Assembly (NCBI GenBank): GCA_023128895.1
Contig: JAGMDC010000011.1
Span: forward strand, 31,820 to 95,819
DNA from: Candidatus Parcubacteria bacterium
Lineage (GTDB): Bacteria > Patescibacteriota > Minisyncoccia > Minisyncoccales > JAGMDC01
Length of the DNA: 64,000 nt
Direction: 5' to 3'
Both the position numbers and the translations under genes were made by a program. Position 1 is the first letter of the stretch; each line of letters opens with the position of its first letter. The notes under the pieces were generated by a model, which was not told where the DNA came from, did not search any database, and saw nothing but the letters and a program-made list of their open reading frames with translations. This document shows, one piece after another, positions 1,760 to 51,842 of the stretch.

Positions 1760-2503
1760 TTACGAATTACGAATTACGAATTTACGGATTTTTTGGGCTA
1801 AAATTTCTGGATTTTCCGTGTATGGAAAATGGCCAATGCCCGGCAAAATCTCCAACTTAGAATTTGGGATTTCCTTGTCCATCAAGTATGCGTCGGATAT
1901 TGGCGTCATATTATCTTTATCGCCCCAGATAATCAAACAGGGAATTTTAATTTTTGAAAAATATTTTCTTAAATCTTCTTTGATTATATTTCTAAATGTT
2001 TCTTTCAAATACAATGATTTTTCCGCCTGAATATAATCAGTTCTTCGTAAAATGTATTTGTAAAAACCCTTGCGAAACAGATTATACAAGGGAATGGACG
2101 AAAATATCTTTCCAAATTTTGCGATTTTGGAAACGCAAACCCGAACAAATTTTCTTTTCGGAATTATTCCGGCAGATGAAACCAAAATTAATCCTTTTAA
2201 TTTTTCAGGATTTCGCGCTGCGAACTTTATGGCAACCCGGCCCCCGAAAGAATGCCCCAATAAAAAAAACGGCTCATCAAAGTCCGAACAAAATTTCTCA
2301 AACCACCTCACATAATCGTTTAAATCCCATACGCGCGGCAATTCTGTTTCTTTTTTAAACCCCGGCACATCCATCACCTTTATTTTAATACTGCGAGAAC
2401 CGTTCTCGTAGTATTGATTGAGCAGGGATTTTACTGTCTGCCATTTTTCTTTTGAACTGCCCCATCCGTGGAGAATAATAATTGTATCTTGACAAATTGG
2501 CAT
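1760..2503 (-). CDS. alpha/beta-fold hydrolase
   Basis: 247-aa ORF with HGWGSS near the N-terminus, the nucleophile elbow GHSFGG and a C-terminal GIGHFP histidine motif. It contains an in-frame copy of the 29-bp palindrome (QYYENGSRSI). Confidence 0.75.
   Translation of the reverse strand: MPICQDTIIILHGWGSSKEKWQTVKSLLNQYYENGSRSIKIKVMDVPGFKKETELPRVWDLNDYVRWFEKFCSDFDEPFFLLGHSFGGRVAIKFAARNPEKLKGLILVSSAGIIPKRKFVRVCVSKIAKFGKIFSSIPLYNLFRKGFYKYILRRTDYIQAEKSLYLKETFRNIIKEDLRKYFSKIKIPCLIIWGDKDNMTPISDAYLMDKEIPNSKLEILPGIGHFPYTENPEILAQKIRKFVIRNS
2387..2415. repeat. 29-bp palindromic element, copy 1 (inside the hydrolase CDS)
   Basis: aatactgcgagaaccgttctcgtagtatt. One mismatch from a perfect 14+1+14 palindrome. 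Translated in-frame as YYENGSR. Confidence 0.85.
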
Positions 2504-2818: not shown

Positions 2819-4140
2819 GACAACTCATTTTTTTTATCTCTTTTCTCTATTTTGTTTATTCCAATATATTTTTGCAGGACTTTTGGGATTAAGACACTGC
2901 CGTCTTTCTGCTGATAATTTTCCAAAATAGCGATAAGGATTCTCGGAGAAGCAATCATTGTGTTATTTAGAGTATAAACAAATTTTTTCTCGTTATTTTT
3001 TATTCTGTATTTTATATTCATCCGCCGCGCCTGCCAATCAGTCAGCGCGGAATCAGAATGCGTCTCGCCGTAACTATCTCTGGAAGGCATCCAAGTTTCA
3101 ACATCTTGCATTTCATATTTTCCAGCGCCCATATCTCCCGTGCAAACCTGAACAACCCTGTACGGCAATTTCAATTCCTCTAAAATTTCTTTGGCACAGC
3201 CCCCTATTTCGTCAAACAATTTATGACTTTCCTCTAAATCAGCCCGGCAAAAAACAACCTGCTCAATTTTCATAAACTCGTGAAGGCGATACAAGCCCTT
3301 TGTATCTTTTCCGTAACTTCCCGCTTCTGAACGATAGCAAGAAGAAAATCCAGCCAATTTGATTGGCAATTTTTTTTCGTCTAAAATAGTGTCAGCGTAA
3401 TACGCTAATAACGCGGGCTCGGATGTTCCGCCTAAAAAAAATTTCTCTTTCACTTCCTCTCCGCTTGCTAATCTGCCTGGATTTGCGATTTGATATATTT
3501 CGGCTTTCGCTTCCGGAAAATGACCGCTGCCAATAAGAACATTCTCGCGCAAAATTGTTGGCGGAATCATTACAACAAATCCTTTCTTCCTTAATTTATC
3601 CAAAGCAAACTGCATTAAAGCGAATTGCAACAATACTGCTTCATTTTTGAGATAATAACCGCGAAATCCGCTTGTTTTAACTCCTCTCTCTATATCAATC
3701 AAATCCAAATCTTTTCCTATTTGAATATGGTCTTTTATTGGAAAATCAAATTTGGGAATTTTGCCTGATTTATAAACTTCTTTATTATAAGTATCGTCAA
3801 CGCCAATAGGAGTATCTTTTGAATAAACATTCGGAACCAAAAGCATTATCTCGTTATACTCCGCGTCAATTTTCTGGAATTGTTTTTTTGTTTTGTCGCT
3901 TTGCTTGTCAATCTTGCGCATTTCTGAAATAATTTTCTTTTTGCTTTTTTCGTCTTTTGCAGCGATAATATCCTTGTTCGCTTTATTCTTTTTCGCGCGA
4001 AACCCGTCTAAAGTGAGCATTATCTTCCGCCTCTGCCTGTCTATTTTCAAAAGTTTATCAATATCAACTTTCACCTGCTTATTCTCGCAGGACTTCTTAA
4101 CTCTATCCGCGTTCTCTCTAATAAATTTTATGTTTAACAT
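2815..4140 (-). CDS. serS: seryl-tRNA synthetase
   Basis: 441 aa. N-terminal coiled-coil arm followed by class II motifs (FLGGTSEPAL, CYRSEAGSYGKDTKGLYRLHEF, TLNNTMIASPRILIAILENYQ). Confidence 0.95.
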   Translation of the reverse strand: MLNIKFIRENADRVKKSCENKQVKVDIDKLLKIDRQRRKIMLTLDGFRAKKNKANKDIIAAKDEKSKKKIISEMRKIDKQSDKTKKQFQKIDAEYNEIMLLVPNVYSKDTPIGVDDTYNKEVYKSGKIPKFDFPIKDHIQIGKDLDLIDIERGVKTSGFRGYYLKNEAVLLQFALMQFALDKLRKKGFVVMIPPTILRENVLIGSGHFPEAKAEIYQIANPGRLASGEEVKEKFFLGGTSEPALLAYYADTILDEKKLPIKLAGFSSCYRSEAGSYGKDTKGLYRLHEFMKIEQVVFCRADLEESHKLFDEIGGCAKEILEELKLPYRVVQVCTGDMGAGKYEMQDVETWMPSRDSYGETHSDSALTDWQARRMNIKYRIKNNEKKFVYTLNNTMIASPRILIAILENYQQKDGSVLIPKVLQKYIGINKIEKRDKKNELS

Positions 4141-14047: not shown

Positions 14048-14345
14048 TAATAAATTTCATAAATCCCGCGATACACACCAAAACCAAAATTTCAAATCCA
14101 AACACGGCATTTGAATAAACAGATAAAAAAAATCCGGCGATAAAAGCAGAAATAATCCCCATATATCTGGCGCTCCTTTTGTCTTTTTCCGCGAACCAGC
14201 GCGGAGCAAAAAGACATATTAAAATCACTGACAATAAAACAAGATTTATCTGATATCCGCTTATATTAAAACGAGTTAAAAAACTTGTCTGAAACAATGT
14301 CAAAAAATAAAAAAATATAACAAGAATTGCGATTTTTTTAAACAT
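14025..14345 (-). CDS. mreD: small polytopic membrane protein, MreD-like by position
   Basis: 106 aa with 3-4 hydrophobic helices. It lies between mreC and mrdA with overlapping start and stop codons. Confidence 0.45.
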   Translation of the reverse strand: MFKKIAILVIFFYFLTLFQTSFLTRFNISGYQINLVLLSVILICLFAPRWFAEKDKRSARYMGIISAFIAGFFLSVYSNAVFGFEILVLVCIAGFMKFIIERYVWI

Positions 14346-15133
14346 TAATAATCAGTGATAATGAATAAACTTTCTAAATCATTAAGGTTAAAAAGCACGG
14401 ACAATTCTGCCTGCTGAAACGGTTCTGCGTCACTCCTTCTTATTTTTTTTATTTCACCTGCCAAAAGCCCTTTTGGAAAAATTCCTCCCAAAGAAGTAGT
14501 AACTACGATATCTCTTTCTTGAATTTCCTTGTCTTTTGAGACGCGCTCAAAATAAAGAGAACCGCTGCCTTTGCCTTTTATCAAGCCAGAAGCATTTTTT
14601 TCTTGAATCTCAGCGCCAAACGAACTTTCCTTATTTGTGAGCAGCATTACTTGTGAAAAATTTTTATAAACTTTGCTCACTTTTCCGCAAACAATTTTCT
14701 CTGCTGTCACAACAGGCATATCTTCTAAAATCCCATAGTCTGAACCTTTATCTACTAAAATAAAATCCCCTTGCTTTGCCGTAATATCGCACAAAACTAT
14801 TTTAAAATTTTCCGTTAATCCAATATCAAGAACCGTTCTCAAAATTTTATTTTCCTGCCGTATATTTTCAATACGAGCGATCTCTGCCAGCAGCCTTTGA
14901 TTTTCTTGCTTAAGATAATCATTTTCGCTTTTTAGATTTTTAGAGTTATAAATTGTTTCAAAAAGATTAGAAGCTCTGTTGCCCGCGTTCCAGAAAACTT
15001 TTTGTATCGGCGCGGAAAAAACATAAAAAGCGTTTTTTATATTATCAGAAAAACCGGTCAAATTAACAACCGCGAAAAAAACAATTAAGCAAGCCGCTGC
15101 GATTATAATTTTTTTTCTCAAATCTGTGTTCAT
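14345..15133 (-). CDS. mreC: rod shape-determining protein MreC
   Basis: 262 aa. N-terminal TM helix, coiled coil (ENDYLKQENQRLLAEIARIE), then a beta-rich domain with GGIFPKGLLAGEI. Confidence 0.75.
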   Translation of the reverse strand: MNTDLRKKIIIAAACLIVFFAVVNLTGFSDNIKNAFYVFSAPIQKVFWNAGNRASNLFETIYNSKNLKSENDYLKQENQRLLAEIARIENIRQENKILRTVLDIGLTENFKIVLCDITAKQGDFILVDKGSDYGILEDMPVVTAEKIVCGKVSKVYKNFSQVMLLTNKESSFGAEIQEKNASGLIKGKGSGSLYFERVSKDKEIQERDIVVTTSLGGIFPKGLLAGEIKKIRRSDAEPFQQAELSVLFNLNDLESLFIITDY

Positions 15134-15142
15134 AAAAAAATA

Positions 15143-15784
15143 TCATTTTTGTTCTTGGTCTTTACGAGAAATTTCTTTCAAAGAGAAACGCATGCCGTGG
15201 CCAAAAATACCCTTAATGTCATTTCTTAAAAATAAAAGCAAAATTACTCCTAATATTCCAAAAATTCCCACTGCGACAAACACTGGTACAAATCCAAAAT
15301 TAGTTGCTGCCCAGCCGCCAACAACTCCTGATATTCCAGCTCCAAAACCCAAAAAAGTGGCATCCAAACCCCATTCAGTCGCTTCTTTGCCTTTATCAAT
15401 ATGGCGGGTAAAGATTGCTGTCCATCCGGAAAGCGACATAGCCATTCCCGTTGCGTAAATCGCCTGAAACAAATAAATATGCCATGGAAGTTCACAAAAT
15501 ATAAATCCAAACGGAACCAAGGCCGCTATAAAAAGTCCTACTGTTAGAAATAAATAATCATCTTGTTCTCCTTTACAATTGTCTAAAAACATTCCAATAG
15601 GAACTCTTAACAACGATGTTAAAATACAATAAATCGCTGAAGCAATCCCCACTGTCAAAGCAGTTGCTCCCTGAATCTCGTCAACAATAAAAATAGCGAA
15701 AATAGGCGTAATCAAACCCCAGCCAGTCCAAAAGGCTATATCTGATAAAATTAGATATTTTACAATTTTATTAACTTTTAACAT
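15143..15784 (-). CDS. six-helix membrane protein, MFS-like half transporter
   Basis: 213 aa, about 6 predicted TM helices. The RVPIGMFLD loop resembles MFS motif A. Confidence 0.45.
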   Translation of the reverse strand: MLKVNKIVKYLILSDIAFWTGWGLITPIFAIFIVDEIQGATALTVGIASAIYCILTSLLRVPIGMFLDNCKGEQDDYLFLTVGLFIAALVPFGFIFCELPWHIYLFQAIYATGMAMSLSGWTAIFTRHIDKGKEATEWGLDATFLGFGAGISGVVGGWAATNFGFVPVFVAVGIFGILGVILLLFLRNDIKGIFGHGMRFSLKEISRKDQEQK

Positions 15785-15796
15785 TGATTATCTTTC

Positions 15797-15880
15797 ATTG
15801 TTGCGGCAGAGCCGCATAATTGTTCGCTCGGTCAAAATACAAAAACAAATTTTTGTGTTTTTTCCTCGCTCTCAATTATA
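15797..15880. repeat. 84-bp 5'-region repeat, copy A (paired with 45313-45396)
   Basis: attgttgcggcagagccgcataattgttcgctcgg..cctcgctctcaattata. High identity to copy B. It contains the gcggc-aga-gccgc hairpin next to the downstream start codon. Confidence 0.7.
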
Positions 15881-15906
15881 GCAAAAAATCGGCGGATTGG
15901 CGATTA

Positions 15907-16653
15907 TTATTTGCAGAATTTGATTAATGTTTTAGCGTTTGCAATGGCAAAACCGGAAGTATCGTTGTTGAAATACACATAAACGTCTAAATTCTGTTTA
16001 ATATATTCCGCGATTTTCCGAAACAAATCTTTTAATTCCTTGTCTGTGTATTTTGACGTAAAGAGAATTTCAGAGCCGTGCATTCTGATATAAACAAAAT
16101 CAGCTGTGATTGTTTGAGTTTTAGGAAAATTCGGTGAATCAGCAATCACAAACGCCGCATTATATTTCTTCAAAATTTTATAAACTTTTTCGCAAAACCA
16201 AGTTTGATGCCGAAACTCAAACGCATTCCTCAACCCATCAGTTTTTATTATTGGAAGGAAATTTAGTAATCTTTGAATATTTTCATCTGTGGCTTGAAAG
16301 TTCGGCGGAAACTGGAATAAGATTGGACCTAATTTTTTTTCTAATCCTTGAGCGCGCTCTAAAAAAGTTTTATACGCGCCTTCAACTTCTTTCAGCCGCT
16401 TGATATGCGTGATATATCTGCTTGCCTTCACGGCAAACACAAAATCATTGGGCGTTTCTTGGCGCCATTTCTGAAAGTTTTGTTTCGTAGGCAAACGATA
16501 AAATGAATAATTGATTTCAGTTGTTTTGAAATGTTGGGAAAAATATTTTAACTTGTCTTTGCCTGCTAAATCTTCAGGATAAAAAATTTTCTTCCAATGA
16601 GGATAAACCCAGCCAGAAGTTCCAATGAATAATTTTGTTTTTTGCTTTGCCAT
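15907..16653 (-). CDS. DUF72 family protein
   Basis: The ORF opens at 16734, but MAKQKTKLFIGTSGWVY (ATG at 16653) matches the usual DUF72 N-terminus. It has YSFYRLP and FQFPPNF motifs. Confidence 0.7.
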   Translation of the reverse strand: MAKQKTKLFIGTSGWVYPHWKKIFYPEDLAGKDKLKYFSQHFKTTEINYSFYRLPTKQNFQKWRQETPNDFVFAVKASRYITHIKRLKEVEGAYKTFLERAQGLEKKLGPILFQFPPNFQATDENIQRLLNFLPIIKTDGLRNAFEFRHQTWFCEKVYKILKKYNAAFVIADSPNFPKTQTITADFVYIRMHGSEILFTSKYTDKELKDLFRKIAEYIKQNLDVYVYFNNDTSGFAIANAKTLIKFCK

Positions 16654-16723
16654 TTGTGCATTATAACACATTTGTATAAAAAAAATTGGGTAACTGCCTT
16701 TCGGCGGCTGCCCTTTTTTATTT

Positions 16724-17803
16724 CTATTCATCATTGTATTCCAATCCTAATGGCTCAATCACGACTTTCTTGGCATTGCTTGCTTCTACGCGCCCTGCCT
16801 CTATCGCTGGAATTCCGTATCCGTCAGCAATATGGATAATATCCGGGGTATCTCTTGGTTCAACAATCACCGCAATTCCCGCGCCATTATTGAATGTCTG
16901 GTACATCTCCTCATCGCTGATATTTCCGTATTCCTGGAGAAACTTGAATACCTCTTGCGGTTTGGGAATTTTATTGATAATGTACGCCCATATCTCTTCG
17001 GCCCTCATTATCTTGCGCCAGCCCTGTCCGGTAATGTTGGAAGCATAATGAATTTTTATGCCTCTATCCAAACAATCTCTTATAACCCGCGCGTATATCA
17101 CTGTCGGCTCAAACAAAGCTATTCCAAAAATTTCTCCATTGTTCATCTCTGCAGAATATCCATTTGGAAGTTTGTCAGCAATATCCCGCGCCAAAGTTAG
17201 GCCATTGGCGTGTACCCCTGAACTTCCAAAAAGAACTATCTCGTCGCCTTCTTTGATGTTTTCGCTGGAAATCCTTCTCTTTTTTGGCTTGATAATCCCA
17301 ACTGCCGAACCATCTAAAACCGCGTGCGCAGGATGTATAATGTCTTTCAGGACCGAGGTTTCTACGCCGCCAAAAACGCATCCGGCGATACGGCACGCTC
17401 TGACCCAACCCTTAATCAAAAGAAAGTATCTCTCTTCGTTGTCAAACCAGGCAGAATCCCCTACTGCCAAATGCATATTCACATTGAGCGGTGTTGCTCC
17501 TGATGCTGCCATACTGTTCACTATCCTTGCGACAGCGTCTTGTCCCATATAGTCATAAAAACTCTTCCAAACCATATTCGTTGCGTCCGCTGCTGCGCTC
17601 TTTGTACCCAGCCCTTCCTTTATATGAGCAACATAACAATCTTCCATTTCTATAAGTTGAACGCTCTCTCTACGGGATTCTTCCACAAATCTCACGCCAA
17701 GTCCGTCTATGCTCTTATCTGTTATTTTTGCTGTGTTTTGGGCTAGCTCCTTGAACGCATCCAATTTGCCGTAATCTACTCTACTCTTCCTTTTTTCTTT
17801 CAT
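16724..17803 (-). CDS. AIR synthase-related (PurM-like) protein
   Basis: 359 aa. PurM-like motifs GLGTKS, GGVETS, FGSSGVHANGLTLARD and EMYQTFNNGAGIAVIV. Confidence 0.65.
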   Translation of the reverse strand: MKEKRKSRVDYGKLDAFKELAQNTAKITDKSIDGLGVRFVEESRRESVQLIEMEDCYVAHIKEGLGTKSAAADATNMVWKSFYDYMGQDAVARIVNSMAASGATPLNVNMHLAVGDSAWFDNEERYFLLIKGWVRACRIAGCVFGGVETSVLKDIIHPAHAVLDGSAVGIIKPKKRRISSENIKEGDEIVLFGSSGVHANGLTLARDIADKLPNGYSAEMNNGEIFGIALFEPTVIYARVIRDCLDRGIKIHYASNITGQGWRKIMRAEEIWAYIINKIPKPQEVFKFLQEYGNISDEEMYQTFNNGAGIAVIVEPRDTPDIIHIADGYGIPAIEAGRVEASNAKKVVIEPLGLEYNDE

Positions 17804-17936
17804 TTTTTTCCTTTTCCTCTTTTTTTTCCATCCTTAATATTTCGATATACTCATCTTTCCTTTTTATCAATGTTTCCAATTCTCTTATTTTTTTGCTTTG
17901 CTTTACTATTGTTTCCTTAAGCGCTTCTTCAACCAT
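17781..17936 (-). CDS. possible 51-aa coiled-coil micro-ORF
   Basis: I translated this by hand: MVEEALKETIVKQSKKIRELETLIKRKDEYIEILRMEKKEEKEKNERKKEE. It is below the ORF-track cutoff. It overlaps the start of the purM-like gene and has no homology signal. Confidence 0.2.
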   Translation of the reverse strand: MVEEALKETIVKQSKKIRELETLIKRKDEYIEILRMEKKEEKEKNERKKEE

Positions 17937-39715: not shown

Positions 39716-39913
39716 TTTATTTTAATCAACGAAATATAAATCGGGAATTACAAATTTTATTATTCGTAATTCTTAATTCTTTATTCGTGATTCTATCTAT
39801 TATTTTCGACCTTTATATGCGAATTCTTTCCTCCTTAGAATTCAAACCTTAACTCGCTGTTATTATCTGAAACGACCTAAGGTTTGAATTTACCAGATGA
39901 AAATTCAATAATT

Positions 39914-39947
39914 AAAAAAACTCCCTTGCTTTTGCTAAGAAGTTTTT
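39914..39947 (-). terminator. terminator-like leader hairpin, second copy (candidate attenuator)
   Basis: Same block as 27404-27437 (aaaaaaactcccttgcttttgctaagaagttttt), located between the promoter at 40015-40042 and the ATG at 39715. Confidence 0.5.
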
Positions 39948-40014
39948 GTAATACGAAAATTTTTTGTTGAAAATTTTGTTTTCATATGTCAAAAATTATC
40001 TGTCTGTATTGTGA

Positions 40015-40042
40015 AGTTTACTCATTCCAAAAACCTTGTCAA
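40015..40042 (-). promoter_or_regulatory. island promoter block, copy 4
   Basis: The minus strand reads GGGTTGACAAGGTTTTTGGAATGAGTAAACT, identical in core to copy 1. Confidence 0.6.
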
Positions 40043-40082
40043 CCCCCACACCTAATCTGGTAATCCAGATTAGGTGTGGGGG
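40043..40082. repeat. 40-nt GC-rich hairpin, copy 2
   Basis: cccccacacctaatctgg-taat-ccagattaggtgtggggg, directly abutting the -35 of the promoter block. Confidence 0.75.
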
Positions 40083-40307
40083 TCAAGGGTTGGCGCATAG
40101 GACGATGTCTGGGGGCCAGGAATAGGGAGGAAAAAGTCCTGCGCAAAAGCGCAAAACAAATCATCTATTCAAGGCGCCCAGATATTGTCCTTTTTGTCCG
40201 ACCCTGTCCTAATGAACCCAGACTTTTGTAAGGTATCAAACCCTACACGAAGATTTATATGTTTACCCCGCCGCTTAATAGTGGGGTATTAAAAAGTCTG
40301 GGGTACA

Positions 40308-40362
40308 TTTTCGCGTTCGCTCGGAAGTCCAAGCGAGCTTGCTCGCTTGAACTTCCCTCGCT
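40308..40362. repeat. flank-hairpin-flank element, copy C
   Basis: gcgttcgctcgg-aagtccaagcgagcttgctcgcttgaactt-ccctcgcttcac. The flank pattern is shared with copies at 42156, 15797 and 45313. Confidence 0.45.
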
Positions 40363-40395
40363 TCACTTGAAAATAAAAAGAACATAATTTTCAAT

Positions 40396-40554
40396 GAGAG
40401 GGTGGGACAATATCTTTCGTAGCGAGAGTTTCAAAATTTGAGGCAAATTTTTCAAACAATTTTTGAAACTTAATATTGTTAAGTTGAAAAAATTTTTGGG
40501 AAATTTGACCGAATTTTGGAAATCGCAGCAGAAAGAATATTGTTCTACACTCTC
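40396..40554. mobile_element. MITE family 1, copy 2 (inverted relative to copy 4)
   Basis: gagagggtgggacaatat..atattgttctacactctc. The interior matches the reverse complement of 49972-50130, including the central cttaacaatattaagtt loop. Confidence 0.8.
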
Positions 40555-40639
40555 ACAATGTCCTAATATTAAAAATAAACAAAATTTTGTCAATACCTTT
40601 TATGTCCTAATGTCCCACATCGCCTTTACGGACAATAAA

Positions 40640-40686
40640 ACAAAACCCGTCTTTGTTCAACTGTACAAAGACGGGCTTTGTTTTCT
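40640..40686. terminator. bidirectional intrinsic terminator
   Basis: aaaacccgtctttgt-tcaactgt-acaaagacgggctttgtttt, with T-runs on both strands. Confidence 0.65.
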
Positions 40687-40691
40687 AAAAT

Positions 40692-40818
40692 AATCCCGCA
40701 ATTATCCCGCAATTTATCCCGCAAGCAAACGGCTCAAATGCGGCTCAAAATGCGGATCAAAATGCGGATCAAAATGAAAAAGTTTAACGGACAAATAACG
40801 GACATTTTAACGGACACT
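40692..40818. repeat. iteron-like cluster of three different short direct repeats
   Basis: Three copies of ATCCCGCAA, four of TCAAA(A)TGCGG and three of TAACGGACA occur in 127 bp. The last unit overlaps the stop of the wHTH ORF. Confidence 0.7.
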
Positions 40819-41047
40819 AGATATTAAGTTGGTAGTACGCGTCTTTCTTAGTCCCCACTTTAGCTAATAATTTTACTTTAACTAAATCAGATAAATACCT
40901 TCTGGCGCTTCTTTGAGTAATATCTAAAATATCCTGAACATCGCTACTGGTTATTTTGCCCATTGTCATCATGAAATCAATTATTTTAATCTGGTTTTTG
41001 TCAAGATATACCTGTCCGCCAATTTTCTTTTTCATTTTAATATCCAA
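40817..41047 (-). pseudogene. C-terminal winged-helix fragment of a MITE-split Fic gene
   Basis: The 76-aa ORF (TTG start) aligns with the C-terminus of the intact Fic paralogue (KNQIKIIDFMMTMGKITSSDVQDIL vs YKQIKVVEFLQKQGKITNRQIRDLL). The frame stays open up to the MITE at 41079. Confidence 0.8.
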
Positions 41048-41079
41048 ACTTAAAGGAATAATAGCATCTTTGGTATATT

Positions 41080-41239
41080 GAGAGTGTAGAACAATATCAT
41101 TTCTACTGCGACTTCCAAAATTTGGTCAAATTTCCCAAAAATTTCCTCAACTTGTATTCTATACAGGTTTCAAAAATTATTTGAAAAATTTGTCTCAAAT
41201 TTTGAAATTCTCGCTACGAAAAATATTGTCCTACACTCT
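41080..41239. mobile_element. MITE family 1, copy 3, inserted in a Fic gene
   Basis: 160 bp, gagagtgtagaacaatat..atattgtcctacactctc, flanked by ATATT/ATTTT. Removing the MITE plus one 5-bp flank restores one continuous Fic ORF. Confidence 0.85.
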
Positions 41240-42059
41240 CATTTTTCATTTCAGAATTAAATCCCTGGATAAAATATTCCAGCCAATTAGTCATATCGCC
41301 CTTCATCCGTTCTTCATAATTGTCGCCCAGATGAATTGCCTTATAATACGCGGGACGATTTTTATTGTAATAACTTTCTAAAGCGAATAATCTGCGGAAG
41401 TCATAGCCCCTTTGATAAAGAATAAGGGTCGCTAACAAGCGCGCGGTTCTGCCGTTGCCGTCAGCAAAAGGATGAATAGCCGCAATTTCAGAATGCGCGA
41501 CTCCAGCTACAATGATTGGACAAATATGATTTTTCTTAGTTTGGTTCATATAATTGACTAAATTTTTAGCCAATTGCGGGACTTGTTTCGGGTCTGGGCC
41601 GGTATAAGATATTTTAATAATTTTATTGCCTCTGCGGCTCACGACATAAACTTTGCGCTTTCTAAAACTGCCGCAGTTGTCTTGAGCAATAGTATTTTTT
41701 GTTACTAATTCGTGAATTTTCAAAATGGTCTTAATGGTAATTTTTTGCTTTTTCTGCGCAAATTCGGAAATAAAATACAGCGCGTCGCGGTAATTTTTGA
41801 CTTCAAAAATATCCCGTTCAGGAGCATCAACCTTTTCATTGGATAAAACTTTTTCCACTTCATAACGATTCAATATATTTCCCTCAATGCTGGTAGAGGA
41901 ATGAATCATTCTTATCATTGCTTGCCGCCTTAGTTTCAATTCTTGTTTGGGAAGAATCGGCGTATGTAAAATCAATGATTTGATTTCAGCGATCTCCATT
42001 AAATCATTAAGGATTTGATGCGTGATTGTATATTTTGGAGTAAAGATATTTATTTTCAT
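41214..42059 (-). pseudogene. N-terminal Fic-domain fragment of the MITE-split Fic gene
   Basis: 281 aa with the Fic motif HPFADGNGRTARLL. The last 8 codons (ESVGQYFS-stop) are read from MITE sequence. Confidence 0.8.
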
Positions 42060-45427: not shown

Positions 45428-48400
45428 TTACAATTTGCGGAATTCGCAAATGTTTCTGAAATCGCAATACTTGCAATGGAACGGATTCGGGGTCGGCTGA
45501 AAATCGCTCTGCTTAATTTTCTCAACCATATTCTTTATCTTTTCCTCAATCTCTTGTTTGCCTTTCTCTATTCCAATAAAAGAAACAATACTCCCGTCGT
45601 TCAAATAATAATAACTTAATTTTTCCACGCGCAATCCAAATACTTTTTCCGCGGCAATCTGGTAAATCAATAATTGTTCTTTCTCCTCCGGCTTTAACTT
45701 TGTTTTTGATTTTCCTGTTTTATAATCAATAATCTCCACACTTTTGCCTGTATCGTCTATTCTGTCTATTTTCCCGACAAAAGTACTCCCTCCTATTTTC
45801 AGTTTGAAACTTTTTTCCAAGACAGGGATGCCCTGAATTGTTTTGATTTTTGGATTTGTTTTTATAAAATTATCGTAAAAAATTTTAAGCGAATCCTTGC
45901 CCAACTTGTAATACTTCTGTTTCTCTTCTTCATTTTCAAACCATTCGTCTTTCCAATTATTTTTATAAATCTCCATCAGCTCCTCAAATCCAATAGTACG
46001 AGAACCGTTCTCGTAGTATTGATTTTGGTTTGATTGGGCAGGGGCAAACAATTGATTTTGGGAACTATTTTCGCTTTTCATAACCCTGTTTATAAAATCA
46101 TATAGAGTATTATGCATTGTTGTGCCGTAAGTAAATACTGCTTTGCCTTTCACCGGAATTTTCAAAATATGCGCGAATTTATACTGCAAAGGACATTTTT
46201 CAAAATTCGCCAACTGGCTGTAAGAAAAATGGTCTGGAATCTGCCCTCCCGCATCGCTACGCTTCGCTGGCGAAGCGTTGCGGGCGGGGATTTGGGATAT
46301 TTTTAGGATACTTGCCATTGGAACCTGGGATTTATCTATTATCCCTGCTTCCATCAAAAACCGCGAAGGCTTTTTGAGCCGCGCCTGGCCGTAATCTTTC
46401 GCAGAAGTAAAAAACAATCCTTTTTTCGCGCGAGTCATCGCGACATAAAACAACCGCCTTTCCTCCTGTAAGTGAATGTCCCCTTCCGGCGCCACCTCCT
46501 TAACCAATGGCTCTGGAATTTCAATGGGCTCTTTTCTTTCAATCGTTGGAAATCTCTTATCAACCAAATTAACCAAAAAAACATACTTAAATTCCAAGCC
46601 CTTTGCGGAATGGATTGTCATAATTTTTACTGTTTCTTCGCCCAATTCTGGATTAAATTTCAACGAGCCCTCTTCGCCGGACTCCAATTCCATATCTATC
46701 TGCTGAATAAATAAGTTTAATTTAGGGTCTGTTTGCTCATCCTCAAACCGCTTAATTCTGTCATAAAATTGATTTATTAAGTCCAAATTTTCTTTCATTT
46801 TTTCCGGTTTCTTTTCTTTTGTTAAATGCTCCAAATATCCTGAATCCTGCAAAAATTCCACAAAAATCTCGCTGATATTTTTCTTTTGCGCCGCGGCGCT
46901 GTGCTTTTTGAGCAAACCTAAAATACTGCTGATTTTCTGCTGTCCCTGTTGGGAAATGCCTTGAATTAAAGGCAATTCCTCCATTGCTTCATACATAGAA
47001 CGAGCTTTGCGACGGCTGTATTGATTTATTCTTACTATATCGTCATAAGCAACCTTAAAACAAGGAATATTCAAAACCCTGTAAACAGCGGAACTTTCAA
47101 AATAATTGTCCAGCAATTTAAGATACGAAATAATGTCTAAAACAATTGGCTTGGAATACAGGCCTTTTGAAGACAAAAATTGATAAGGTATGTTCGCGCG
47201 CTCCATCGCGCGGGAAAACATATTTGCCGCCTCATTGGTTCTGCAAAGAATAGCAAAATCATTAAACGCAATATCTTGAGATTTGCTTTTGAGCTCTAAA
47301 ATTTTATTGACAACGCCGTCAAATTCCAGTTCTTTGGTGTCAAAAAATAAATGTTCAATCACTGCTTTGTCTGTTTTCGCGGCTTTTAATCTTTTGTCAA
47401 TTTTTTTAAATTCTGTCAAATCAACTCCTTTTTCGCGCGCACTTTGGGAAATTTCCTTTACTTTGTTGAGCTGGTATTCCAAGCGATTGGGATTATTAAA
47501 TTGGATGAATTTATAAGATAAGTCCAAAATGTTCTGACAGGAGCGATAATTTTCCGTAAGCACTATTTCCTTTGCTTTTGGAAAATCTTTTCTGAATTGC
47601 AAAACATTATTAAAAGAAGCGCCTCTCCACCTATACACACTTTGGTCGTCGTCTCCGCAAACCATAATATTGTTCTTTGGCTCAGCAATTTGTTTTACCA
47701 ATTCATACTGCGCCCAATTAGTGTCCTGAAATTCGTCCACTAAAATATACTTAAATTGTTTTCTGAATTTCTCTAAAATAAGAGGCCTCTGCTGGAATAA
47801 TTTCAAGCAGTAATTGATTAAATCAGCGAAATCCAGACAATTATTTTCCAACAATAAGCGCTGGTATGTATGATAAGCGTTTGCTATTTCTTTAATTCTG
47901 TCACGCTCGTCCTGCAGGCAGGCGAGTTCGCTTTTGTCTTTTGATTTTATTGCCTTGCTCCCAACTGGCGCGTCGTTTGTATTAAACTGCAAATCCTCGC
48001 TGTATTTCAAATATTGTTCCGGCGCGATTCCCTCGTCTTTGCACCGGGAAAAATGATTAAGCAAACTCTGTATAAACTTTGTTGGATTGCCCAACGGCTT
48101 ATAATAATCCAAATCAAACTTGTCTAAATTCTGGCGTATCAAAAGCCAGGACCCTACTTGGTCCAATAACCGAAAATTAGTTGAAAGCCCGATGTCCAAC
48201 CCGTAATTTTTCAAAACCCGCTCGCAAAAAGAATGAAAAGTGGAAATCCAAAATTCTGAATAATTATCCGGGAATATCTCCTCTACCCTATCCGCCATTT
48301 CTTCCGCGGCTTTTTCCGTAAAAGTTAAACCTAAAATTTCTTCTGGCTTTGCTTTTTTGGTTTTAATAAGTTCAGCGATTCTTTCCGTAATTACGGTTGT

Positions 48401-48502
48401 TTTTCCAGTCCCGGCGCCGGCAACAATTAAAAGAGGGCCGTCACACCACGTCGCGGCCATCTTCTGCTCTTTATTCAATTTTCTCTTTTTTACTTCTGCC
48501 AT
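45428..48502 (-). CDS. UvrD/PcrA-type SF1 helicase fused to a C-terminal Cas4/AddB-type PD-(D/E)XK nuclease
   Basis: 1024 aa. Helicase motifs are GAGTGKTTV, VDEFQDTN, TIHSAKGLEF and YVAMTRAK. Nuclease motifs are GKIDRID..IIDYKTGK with Cys ligands C..CKYCDFRNIC. It carries one GC-rich palindrome and one 29-bp palindrome in frame. Confidence 0.85.
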   Translation of the reverse strand: MAEVKKRKLNKEQKMAATWCDGPLLIVAGAGTGKTTVITERIAELIKTKKAKPEEILGLTFTEKAAEEMADRVEEIFPDNYSEFWISTFHSFCERVLKNYGLDIGLSTNFRLLDQVGSWLLIRQNLDKFDLDYYKPLGNPTKFIQSLLNHFSRCKDEGIAPEQYLKYSEDLQFNTNDAPVGSKAIKSKDKSELACLQDERDRIKEIANAYHTYQRLLLENNCLDFADLINYCLKLFQQRPLILEKFRKQFKYILVDEFQDTNWAQYELVKQIAEPKNNIMVCGDDDQSVYRWRGASFNNVLQFRKDFPKAKEIVLTENYRSCQNILDLSYKFIQFNNPNRLEYQLNKVKEISQSAREKGVDLTEFKKIDKRLKAAKTDKAVIEHLFFDTKELEFDGVVNKILELKSKSQDIAFNDFAILCRTNEAANMFSRAMERANIPYQFLSSKGLYSKPIVLDIISYLKLLDNYFESSAVYRVLNIPCFKVAYDDIVRINQYSRRKARSMYEAMEELPLIQGISQQGQQKISSILGLLKKHSAAAQKKNISEIFVEFLQDSGYLEHLTKEKKPEKMKENLDLINQFYDRIKRFEDEQTDPKLNLFIQQIDMELESGEEGSLKFNPELGEETVKIMTIHSAKGLEFKYVFLVNLVDKRFPTIERKEPIEIPEPLVKEVAPEGDIHLQEERRLFYVAMTRAKKGLFFTSAKDYGQARLKKPSRFLMEAGIIDKSQVPMASILKISQIPARNASPAKRSDAGGQIPDHFSYSQLANFEKCPLQYKFAHILKIPVKGKAVFTYGTTMHNTLYDFINRVMKSENSSQNQLFAPAQSNQNQYYENGSRTIGFEELMEIYKNNWKDEWFENEEEKQKYYKLGKDSLKIFYDNFIKTNPKIKTIQGIPVLEKSFKLKIGGSTFVGKIDRIDDTGKSVEIIDYKTGKSKTKLKPEEKEQLLIYQIAAEKVFGLRVEKLSYYYLNDGSIVSFIGIEKGKQEIEEKIKNMVEKIKQSDFQPTPNPFHCKYCDFRNICEFRKL
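45992..46020. repeat. 29-bp palindromic element, copy 2 (inside the helicase CDS)
   Basis: aatagtacgagaaccgttctcgtagtatt, translated as QYYENGSRTI. Confidence 0.85.
46244..46289 (-). repeat. GC-rich palindromic element, copy 4 (inside the helicase CDS)
   Basis: The minus strand reads ccccgcccgcaacgcttcgccagcgaagcgtagcgatgcgggaggg, translated as PARNASPAKRSDAGG. Frame and orientation are the same as in ftsZ. Confidence 0.85.
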
Positions 48503-48555: not shown

Positions 48556-48584
48556 AATACTACGAGAACCGTTCTCGTAACATT
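48556..48584. repeat. 29-bp palindromic element, copy 3 (intergenic)
   Basis: aatactacgagaaccgttctcgtaacatt. Confidence 0.8.
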
Positions 48585-48694: not shown

Positions 48695-49936
48695 ATGACA
48701 AAAATAAAAATTACTTTAGGAATTTTAGTCGTTGGAGTTTTAATTGTTTCAGGGGCAATGTTGGCTTCGGCAGGCAATCATGCGGCAGACCAAAGGGTTT
48801 ATGTTTTGACAGATAATTCAACGGTAAAAACAATACTGGGAGTTAGACACGAATTTCCAGGCGCATTTTCCGCTGAAGTTTCTCCGCGATTGAAAGCATT
48901 AAACTCTTTAGGATTGATAAAAACTGAACCGGTTCAGATTTATCAAATTACTGGAAAACCGGTTTGCGGCAATGGGATAATTGAGGGCGGCGAGAAATGC
49001 GAGAAAAATGAATCGGGTGAATGGCAGGGATGTCCAGAAGGGCAAACCTGTAAAAATTGTAAATGTATTGAAGAAAGCGCGCCGCCAGAAAGAGCTTGTT
49101 ATCCAGCTAACCAAACTCCTTGGGGCATTGTAAAAGTAAATGGGGGTTCTGGCGGAGCAGGAATAAAAGTGGCGGTTCTGGATACAGGTGTGTATAAAGA
49201 CCATTTAGATTTAAAAGCCAATGTTGTAGATTGCAAAGACACTACAAAAAGAGGGATTAAGAATGGTTGCCGGGATGGTAATGGCCATGGTACTCATGTT
49301 GCCGGAACAATTTTAGCCAATGGTGGAGATGATGGTAAAGGGATTTATGGAGTAGCGCCAGAAGCAAAATTGATGGCGATAAAAGTTTGCGGACCAACTG
49401 GTTGTTGGGGTGACGATATTGCGGCTGCTATTAGATATGCATCAAACAATGGCGCTAATATTATCTCAATGAGCCTTGGCGGAGATAGCCAGAGTTCTAT
49501 TATTAAAGATGCGATAGATTACGCGGTTGGCAAAGGTGTTTTGGTAATAGCTGCGGCCGGCAATGACGGACCCGCAGATGGTAGTATAGATTATCCAGGA
49601 GCAAATGCGAAAGTAATAGCAGTAGGCGCAATTGATTCAGGGAAAAATGTGCCAAGTTGGTCATCTCGGGGCATAACTGCTGGTGATTACATAATTGAAG
49701 AAAGAGAGGTAGAGTTTGGAGCACCGGGTGTGAGCGTGGAATCGACATGGAAAGACAGCTGTTATAACACAATTTCTGGAACATCTATGGCAACACCACA
49801 TGTTGCGGGACTGGCAGCTAAATTATGGCAAGGCAATGCTTCTGCTACCAGAACTTACTTGCAAAGTGTAGCCACGGATATTTGGGACGCCGGAGATGAC
49901 ACAGCAACTGGTTTTGGGCTTCCAATAGCTCCATAA
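48695..49936 (+). CDS. secreted subtilisin-like serine protease (S8) with a Cys-rich insert
   Basis: 413 aa with a signal peptide. The insert is CGNGIIEGGEKCE..CKNCKC. The catalytic triad motifs are VAVLDTGV, HGTHVAGT and GTSMATPHVAG. Confidence 0.9.
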   Translation: MTKIKITLGILVVGVLIVSGAMLASAGNHAADQRVYVLTDNSTVKTILGVRHEFPGAFSAEVSPRLKALNSLGLIKTEPVQIYQITGKPVCGNGIIEGGEKCEKNESGEWQGCPEGQTCKNCKCIEESAPPERACYPANQTPWGIVKVNGGSGGAGIKVAVLDTGVYKDHLDLKANVVDCKDTTKRGIKNGCRDGNGHGTHVAGTILANGGDDGKGIYGVAPEAKLMAIKVCGPTGCWGDDIAAAIRYASNNGANIISMSLGGDSQSSIIKDAIDYAVGKGVLVIAAAGNDGPADGSIDYPGANAKVIAVGAIDSGKNVPSWSSRGITAGDYIIEEREVEFGAPGVSVESTWKDSCYNTISGTSMATPHVAGLAAKLWQGNASATRTYLQSVATDIWDAGDDTATGFGLPIAP

Positions 49937-51746: not shown

Positions 51747-51774
51747 TAAAATTCATATTGCAGATATTTCAAAA

Positions 51775-51808
51775 ACAAAATCCGACAATTGTCGGATTTT
51801 GTTTTTGG
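51775..51808. terminator. bidirectional intrinsic terminator between the convergent S8 and acyP genes
   Basis: aaaatccgacaattgtcggatttt flanked by A-run and T-run. Confidence 0.75.
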
Positions 51809-51813
51809 TTTTT

Positions 51814-51842
51814 AATACTACGAGAACGGTTCTCGTAGTATT
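51814..51842. repeat. 29-bp palindromic element, copy 4 (intergenic, opposite orientation)
   Basis: aatactacgagaacggttctcgtagtatt. The arms are perfect and the central base is flipped (g instead of c). Confidence 0.85.

Follow-up and report, generated by a model that had tools for sequence, protein, structure and literature searches.

A palindromic repeat of probable REP type, with a RAYT-like partner gene, in Parcubacteria and other Patescibacteria

Bacteria such as Escherichia coli, Pseudomonas, and Stenotrophomonas carry systems in which a repetitive extragenic palindrome (REP) is paired with a REP-associated tyrosine transposase (RAYT, or TnpA-REP) (PMC3733652, PMC3479197, PMC5581495). 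REPs of the GTAG type, REPtrons, and REPs that lie in frame within genes, including repair genes of the UvrD/RecB type, are known in other phyla, and the pairing of a transposase with its own specific repeat has been described for REPtrons (PMC3733652). The E. coli RAYT binds the hairpin form of REP on single-stranded DNA as a monomer, and the AG of GTAG pairs with the CT at the cleavage site (PMC3479197). Here we analyze a stretch of 64,000 nucleotides from a Candidatus Parcubacteria bacterium (the window; coordinates refer to this whole stretch unless another locus is named), in which a 29-bp palindrome is present four times, including twice inside unrelated genes. This palindrome is very probably a REP-type repeat of a Parcubacteria/Patescibacteria genome, with a partner RAYT (a Y1/HUH nuclease-ligase that acts on single-stranded DNA) that is encoded outside the window. 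Our literature search found no report that links a REP/RAYT repeat family to the Patescibacteria, or candidate phyla radiation (CPR); one preprint mentions K07491 only as an entry for an archaeon. The kind of system is already known and its Patescibacteria member is new. What is unusual about this member is the high share of copies within genes, the copy within the transposase gene itself, and the conservation at the nucleotide level of copies at orthologous intragenic sites.

We searched the window with the consensus AATACTACGAGAACSGTTCTCGTAGTATT, allowing up to 3 mismatches, and used 100 dinucleotide-preserving shuffles of the window as the null. We found exactly four sites, which begin at 2387, 45992, 48556, and 51814, and the shuffles gave no comparable match (4 observed versus 0.00 expected). 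An earlier reading of the same DNA, which used only the sequence and no database searches (the sequence-only reading), had placed copies at these four positions and had judged that they were not due to chance, and it was right on both counts. It had also described a perfect palindrome at all four sites, but only the copy at 51814-51842 is a perfect 29-bp palindrome and an exact match to the consensus; the copies at 2387, 45992, and 48556 have 1, 1, and 2 substitutions, respectively. All four copies share an unaltered 15-bp core, CGAGAACSGTTCTCG. If the consensus is single-stranded, it is predicted by computed folding to form a hairpin with a 13-bp stem (-10.9 kcal/mol, z = -7.6).

The first copy (2387-2415, AATACTGCGAGAACCGTTCTCGTAGTATT, with A>G at position 7) is inside the gene for an alpha/beta hydrolase of 247 amino acids (1760-2503, minus strand; identical to NCBI MCK4355372.1), where the minus strand reads QYYENGSRSI. 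The second copy (45992-46020, AATAGTACGAGAACCGTTCTCGTAGTATT, with C>G at position 5) is inside a gene that encodes a UvrD-type helicase fused to a PD-(D/E)XK nuclease (45428-48502, minus strand, 1024 amino acids) and reads QYYENGSRTI. With one more residue in common, the two peptides are NQYYENGSRSI and NQYYENGSRTI, as the sequence-only reading had noted. The third copy (48556-48584, with GT>AC at positions 25-26 in the right outer arm) is intergenic. It lies 54 bp upstream of the helicase ATG (48502, minus strand), between this gene and a divergent subtilase gene whose ATG is at 48695. The fourth copy (51814-51842) is flanked by convergent genes, with the stop codon of an acylphosphatase gene 2 nt away, and its central base is flipped to G. 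When the 80-bp flanks of the four copies were aligned, they were not conserved, except for a GATT beside both of the genic copies, so the repeat unit is the 29-mer. The lack of conservation past the 29-mer also rules out a longer element (a miniature inverted-repeat transposable element or an element like those of Rickettsia).

A relaxed scan of the window gave no additional convincing copy; there was one weak core-like site near 14827. This degenerate sequence (TCAAGAACCGTTCTCAA, 14820-14848) is inside an open reading frame (ORF) on the minus strand (14345-15133) and is a possible decayed copy, with about 0.25 such sites expected by chance. A scan of the window with Rfam at gathering thresholds and with ARAGORN had no match to a known RNA family or a tRNA-linked element. 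The palindrome is not a CRISPR repeat either: no arrays are present, and copies lie near each other solely in doublets of other genomes, at distances of 23-42 bp.

To our knowledge, the palindromic elements of Rickettsia have no dedicated transposase. We scanned 185,579 genomes (one per species) for an exact match to a 19-bp core, TACGAGAACNGTTCTCGTA, and obtained 46 loci. All but two of these loci are from metagenome-assembled genomes (MAGs) of Patescibacteria (Nealsonbacteria, Portnoybacteria, Minisyncoccales, Saccharibacteria-labelled MAGs, and others), and the core recurs in about 20 Patescibacteria genomes. In four loci (L004, L008, L035, and L044), three copies with spacings of about 200 and 540 bp are arranged around an ORF of 232-238 amino acids that starts with MPIKRP: one copy is 10-30 bp before the ATG, one is near codon 60, and one is at the stop codon. 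For the RAYT-like genes as a whole, the upstream copy is 30-60 bp from the ATG. L042 has one copy just upstream of the ORF. In three loci that we fetched independently (L057, L058, and L059), the gene has upstream and downstream copies that belong to the locus's own variant (the flanking copies in L059 are imperfect), and L057 and L058 have a copy inside the ORF as well. With L052/L053, which are described below, the gene is flanked by the repeat in nine of nine loci. Because the same palindrome brackets a Y1/HUH gene in every one of them, we consider this a REP/RAYT (REPtron) system rather than a family of Rickettsia-type elements.

The ORF, of about 240 amino acids, matches PF01797 (Y1_Tnp, IS200-like) in Pfam with E = 7e-12. 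Its best family in NCBIfam is NF047646, REP-associated tyrosine transposase, at 53.3 bits (versus 17 bits for IS200). All of 32 homologues keep the HUH motif (H92 and H94, in NHVHLL) and Tyr152 (in YIHTNP) unchanged. An AlphaFold model of the protein (pLDDT 66, with 75-89 in the core) has the E. coli RAYT with a REP hairpin (4ER8_A) as its best fold match in PDB, according to Foldseek, followed by the TnpA proteins of ISDra2 and IS608. There are about 2,600 homologues at E < 1e-10, and all of those with a named source are from Patescibacteria lineages or from an unclassified "bacterium." Among the matches to the repeat, there is one RAYT locus per genome, except in JACPGX, which has two divergent paralogues; the neighbors of the RAYT gene are housekeeping genes. 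Of the 32 homologues in the alignment, nearly all retain the internal copy of the palindrome (alignment columns ~100-125; 3164-3192 in L052), which is read in one frame or the other (as YENxSR or as xRTVLV), with repeated switches between them. Since either frame is used, conservation or repeated renewal acts on the DNA and not on the peptide.

The window's own genome probably encodes such a protein as well. The hydrolase from the window (MCK4355372.1) occurs in the ZHAN22-2 metagenome series. The ZHAN22-2 samples that contain the window also contain L052 and L053, which encode a RAYT homologue (P0170, or MCK4354861.1) under the same organism name; the copies that bracket this gene match the window consensus, AATACTACGAGAACCGTTCTCGTAGTATT, exactly. 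Specifically, L052 has a copy at 2941 (just after a -10-like box, TGGTATAAT, and 60 bp before the ATG of P0170), a copy at 3164 (inside the ORF), a copy at 3736 (10 bp after the stop codon), and one more copy after the next gene. The accession numbers of these two proteins, the hydrolase and P0170, are just 511 apart, which makes it probable that they come from the same MAG. Altogether, about 80 kb of DNA from the window organism has at least 10 copies of the palindrome.

The outer arms of the palindrome vary between genomes and remain complementary. For example, the variant is of the type AAACATACGAGAAC... in JACPGX, AACACTACGAGAAC... in JBARPC, AAAATTACGAGAAC... in PFOG, and TATGCCGAGAAC... 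in a contig from Pacebacteria. The central base pair is also specific to the genome, with hardly any exceptions inside one genome: it is C/G in the window genome (10 of 10 copies), in JACPGX (5 of 5), and in PFOG (8 of 8), and it is A/T in CAZOVC (9 of 9), JBARPC (10 of 10), and CAYNAT (6 of 6). In JACPGX, which belongs to the Nealsonbacteria, the two RAYT paralogues (L008, JACPGX010000002.1, 139-855; and L058, JACPGX010000001.1, 10001-10726) are each bracketed by their own variant (AAACATACGAGAAC-type versus AAACTGACGAGAAC-type). These paralogues are a natural specificity pair.

We took a census of 71 copies in the loci from about 20 related genomes, including the window organism. This DNA is 88% coding, yet 42 of the 71 copies are intergenic, in the ~12% that is non-coding, and just 28 (39%) are well inside long ORFs (binomial P about 5e-22). 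Thus, the copies are strongly depleted from genes, which implies purifying selection against most genic copies. Even so, an intragenic share of 39% is far above that of the classical REP families. The intragenic copies use two open frames, which encode (Y)YEN[GSCR]SR and (T)TRTVLV; only a variant without TAG uses the third frame. The genes that host these copies encode enolase, peptidyl-tRNA hydrolase (Pth), Mur-ligase-type and tRNA-synthetase-like enzymes, the hydrolase, and the helicase, among others. The sequence-only reading had drawn attention to the common frame and orientation of the two genic copies in the window. They do have the same frame and orientation, in two genes that are each encoded on the minus strand, but this is not significant: because TAG closes the third frame whichever way the element is turned, and the orientation is set only by the central base, the chance that two genic copies agree in frame and orientation is about 1 in 4.

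We also noticed some variations on the standard copy. Head-to-head doublets of the palindrome, 23-33 bp apart and with outer arms that are common or abutting, are present in L027 (7039-7092), L030 (2944-2997), L013 (3864-3925), and L023 (447-498). These are reminiscent of REPIN/BIME, and the window has none. In L043 (5197-5255) and L045 (432-502), hairpins with a GAGAACNGTTCTC core lie beside standard copies and have different GC-rich outer stems that are followed by T-runs (cggtCGAGAACAGTTCTCGaccg, gtgcCGAGAACAGTTCTCGgcac); these could be sub-families related to the repeat, or terminators that incorporate its core. The exact 19-bp core, with near-identical flanks, is also present in contigs labelled Anaerolineales / Chloroflexi (L024, 119-147, and L029, 1625-1653), where it is inside an ORF (STRTVLV). 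Chance, mis-binning, or transfer could be the cause.

The variants and the census bear on two other explanations for the palindrome. The sequence-only reading had suggested that it could equally be a binding site for a dimeric protein, and if so, it might be the operator of a transcription factor that binds double-stranded DNA and controls a regulon. An operator would be consistent with the perfect dyad symmetry, with a core that is conserved across genomes, and with the copies in promoter or 5' regions, such as 48556 between divergent genes or the copy at 2941 of L052, upstream of the RAYT gene. However, 39% of the copies are in coding sequences and many others directly follow stop codons, so that the sites are not concentrated at promoters; 29 bp is long for an operator; tandem doublets exist; and the host genes (hydrolase, helicase, enolase, Pth, and tRNA synthetases) are unrelated and have no common function. 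Furthermore, the arm variants follow each genome's own transposase, and in JACPGX they differ between the two RAYT paralogues and track each gene. On these grounds, we rejected membership in this class and consider an operator very improbable. By analogy to E. coli, the protein that binds the palindrome in the window is likely RAYT.

Another explanation is that these bacteria, as scavengers of DNA, use the palindrome to mark DNA for uptake by their competence machinery. The uptake sequences of Neisseria and Pasteurellaceae are abundant, occur in frame within genes, and form inverted pairs at terminators. The palindrome has features like these, and its core is common to related genomes. But the copy number is low (in the better-sampled genomes, our whole-genome scan found roughly 5-10 copies per genome with an exact core), and the arms are genome-specific. 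Nor would uptake explain why a Y1 transposase gene is systematically bracketed. We give this explanation hardly any weight.

Are the genic copies insertions? Comparisons with orthologues indicate that they are, relative to outgroup orthologues. For the helicase, the peptide is absent from all 59 of the closest orthologues (which are up to 66% identical), and on this alignment the copy is lineage-specific. It lies in a hypervariable linker of the PD-(D/E)XK domain, with a net gain of 5 residues relative to the nearest relative. The hydrolase is different. Among its 37 orthologues, a large clade has the peptide, intact or decayed, at the same site (as QYYENTSRSI, QYYEKTSRSI, KHHENDSRGV, KHYEDSPRSV, and other versions), and outgroup hydrolases read ...EKQGLK... 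without an insert. The alignment thus indicates that the hydrolase copy is old and inherited, though not universal ancestral sequence. Within the clade, 3-4 sublineages have lost the insert and returned to the outgroup length, a hint that excision may be seamless. At the DNA level, one orthologue (P0023) has a shorter and perfectly palindromic variant, ATCGAGAACAGTTCTCGAT, at the same place. Another orthologue, P0004 (alignment columns 66-89), has a secondary insertion, EAPAFANATAGK, within the segment that the element encodes; the site is still an indel hotspot. In the AlphaFold model of the hydrolase (pLDDT 83), the peptide forms the C-terminal end of a helix (19-33), a loop (34-37), and the start of a strand (38-44), so the modeled peptide is a surface connection. 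The sequence-only reading had proposed that both peptides are at surface or linker positions and that the palindrome belongs to a repeat family that is tolerated in frame within ORFs. The first proposal agrees with the hydrolase model and the helicase alignment, and the second is supported by the insert-free orthologues and the over-representation of the repeat.

The same comparisons address the possibility that there is no repeat element at all, and that the peptide was inherited as ancestral coding sequence or is alike in the two proteins by chance. Part of the hydrolase family does have the peptide at the same site. But the same DNA is found in intergenic copies, outgroup hydrolases and all of the helicase orthologues lack the peptide, and the reading frame of this DNA varies from gene to gene, which together refute this idea; we see practically no chance that it is correct.

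How does the Patescibacteria family compare to described systems? Like a REP/REPtron system, it is a short palindromic repeat with copies scattered across the genome; the variant specific to a genome flanks the gene for a Y1/HUH transposase homologue, and two transposase genes go with two variants; the copies are enriched in intergenic regions and are often adjacent to stop codons; and there are occasional in-frame intragenic copies, including in genes of the UvrD/RecB type. The GTAG in the window variant is ambiguous as a shared tag. It differs from REP/REPtron systems in having 39% of its copies within genes, with one copy conserved inside the RAYT ORF. Copy numbers are in the tens per Patescibacteria genome of about 1 Mb, versus hundreds for REP, and the RAYT has about 240 amino acids, with a conserved C-terminal extension, versus 165 for the E. 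coli RAYT. The IS200/IS605 elements (IS608 and ISDra2) also have the Y1/HUH fold, hairpins that flank the transposase gene, and a presumed single-stranded DNA chemistry. In those elements, though, the transposase moves together with two distinct end hairpins as a multi-copy unit, whereas here the hairpin alone disperses and, among the matches, the gene is found once or twice per genome.

The sequence-only reading had cited the Rickettsia palindromic elements (RPEs) as the precedent. The likeness in in-frame tolerance is genuine, in that RPEs are also palindromic repeats that are tolerated in frame in unrelated genes at surface or linker positions, but the nearest known family is REP/RAYT. RPEs are about 100-150 bp long, and the unit here is 29 bp; the element in the window has a GTAG-type end and not CGTC; and it is tied to a RAYT-like gene. 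RPEs are CGTC-tagged (PMC3733652). We therefore rejected membership in the RPE family on length, tag, and association with a transposase; in-frame insertion is a feature in common.

Several observations weigh against a REP/RAYT assignment. First, the classical REP is an imperfect hairpin with an unpaired GTAG tail at its 5' end, but the Parcubacteria unit is a near-perfect symmetric palindrome of 29 bp. Although the window variant contains GTAG (as ...CTCGTAGTATT), these bases are paired with CTAC in the stem, and copies in other genomes have GTAT, GTAA, GTCA, or GGCA at this position. Also, classical REPs often occur as REPIN/BIME doublets, and the Patescibacteria copies are mostly singlets. 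Second, the 53.3-bit score of the transposase is below the curated cut-off of NF047646 (80 bits), so it is a divergent relative of RAYT and not an equivalog of the curated set. The fold search returned equal E-values for 4ER8 and for the ISDra2 TnpA, and searches of PDB sequences with the transposase (both as a single sequence and as a profile) did not reach 4ER8 and gave only a weak match to ISDra2 (E = 0.018); the link to 4ER8 comes from the fold search alone. Third, tblastn found no RAYT within the window, and the link to the window's own genome consists of the common samples, the identical repeat sequence, and the proximity of the accessions.

Finally, pairs of filled and empty orthologues differ by -2, 0, +1, +5, +6, or +9 codons, and not by the ~10 codons of the repeat. 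We tried to derive a fixed insert size and a target site from these pairs, and we abandoned both because of this range, because some of the "empty" sites are old copies, and because the pairs, at 45-75% identity, are too divergent. For instance, the apparently empty site in L007 is an old copy whose dyad symmetry has been kept via compensatory changes in the arms. As there is no fixed insert size, these pairs lend no support to a simple cut-and-paste movement of the 29-mer. Replacement in place is possible, as is insertion followed by readjustment of the loop's length.

If the palindrome is a REP-type repeat, then its mobilization might resemble that of E. coli TnpA-REP and of IS200/IS605. Where the DNA is single-stranded, as on the lagging strand, either strand could fold into a hairpin of 13-14 bp. 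By analogy to those systems, RAYT would bind the hairpin, cleave it using the tyrosine, and rejoin the strands, and would thereby copy, excise, or rewrite the element. In the window variant, the stem itself pairs GTAG with CTAC, which suggests, speculatively and by analogy with the GTAG/CT pairing in E. coli, that cleavage would be at the CT of the left arm, in AATAC|TACGAG. New copies that destroy a gene would be purged, and the surviving genic copies would be those in surface loops or linkers and in the frames that encode (Y)YEN[GSCR]SR or (T)TRTVLV. Under this mechanism, two of the four copies in the window would be in-frame copies that the host genes tolerate, and the other two would be ordinary copies between genes.

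The age of some copies raises the question of what maintains them. Copies are found at orthologous positions across genomes: the Pth copy is at the same site in three genomes (L020, L028, and L033), and other such cases are the pairs L011/L038 and L014/L019, the hydrolase clade, and the internal copy in RAYT. Within these orthologous copies, the third codon positions of conserved residues are identical in 91 of 103 cases (88%), versus about 60% elsewhere in the same genes. One explanation is that the palindrome is a DNA or RNA hairpin that functions for the host (as a terminator, an mRNA stabilizer, a processing site, or a landing pad for a protein) and is kept by selection at fixed positions, also within genes, with RAYT as the enzyme that maintains it and not a selfish mobilizer. 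This would add to the REP/RAYT interpretation and would not exclude it. Besides the orthologous positions and the conserved third codon positions, it would account for the retention of the internal RAYT copy despite its varying frame and for the compensatory changes in the L007 copy; also, both of the intergenic copies in the window (48556 and 51814) score as terminator-like. But rewriting or re-insertion of the current variant, driven by RAYT, would yield the same pattern. Also, several lineages have lost the hydrolase copy with no visible consequence, and the helicase copy is confined to one lineage. We regard a host function as a possibility that is probably not correct.

A related idea, which we put forward as unlikely but worth stating, is that RAYT actively maintains or rewrites copies at fixed orthologous positions, including in essential genes and in its own ORF, so that the palindrome is a signal at the DNA or RNA level that overrides codon choice and reading frame. 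Five observations point to rewriting in place: the 88% versus ~60% identity at synonymous sites, the frame switching of the internal copy, the genome-specific arms at orthologous sites, the compensatory changes in the arms, and the lack of a fixed insert size.

A REP-type repeat would explain why two unrelated proteins have the same odd peptide. It also implies that many apparent insertions of the YENxSR or TRTVLV type in CPR proteins are derived from repeats, which matters for annotation, alignment, and structure prediction. REP/RAYT systems are hereby extended to the Patescibacteria, whose streamlined genomes of about 1 Mb are usually thought to be poor in repeats, and the family, with its large intragenic share, its conserved copy in the transposase ORF, and its genome-specific variants, offers a compact natural system for studying the co-evolution of RAYTs and hairpins and whether such repeats are selfish or domesticated.

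Some other features of the window and its surroundings are outside the repeat family or at its edge. Between the convergent genes, 5 bp before the fourth copy of the palindrome, there is a very strong terminator-like hairpin on the plus strand (51769-51808) with an 18-bp stem that is followed by a T-run; it does not belong to the family. A 1.5-kb stretch at 39716-41213 has no ORF of at least 80 amino acids and no match in Rfam. This stretch adjoins a gene with a Fic domain (41214-42059, with the motif HPFADGNGR), and a small ORF at 40817-41047 looks, by eye, like it encodes a helix-turn-helix protein. The DNA that adjoins the left end of the window (L047) has a tandem duplication of a pair of genes, namely a 108-amino-acid ORF and an NYN-domain gene, at 15626-17858. 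At 19538 of L047, there is a further decayed copy of the palindrome, which is inside a gene of the PMT_2 glycosyltransferase family and reads HHENGSRTI.

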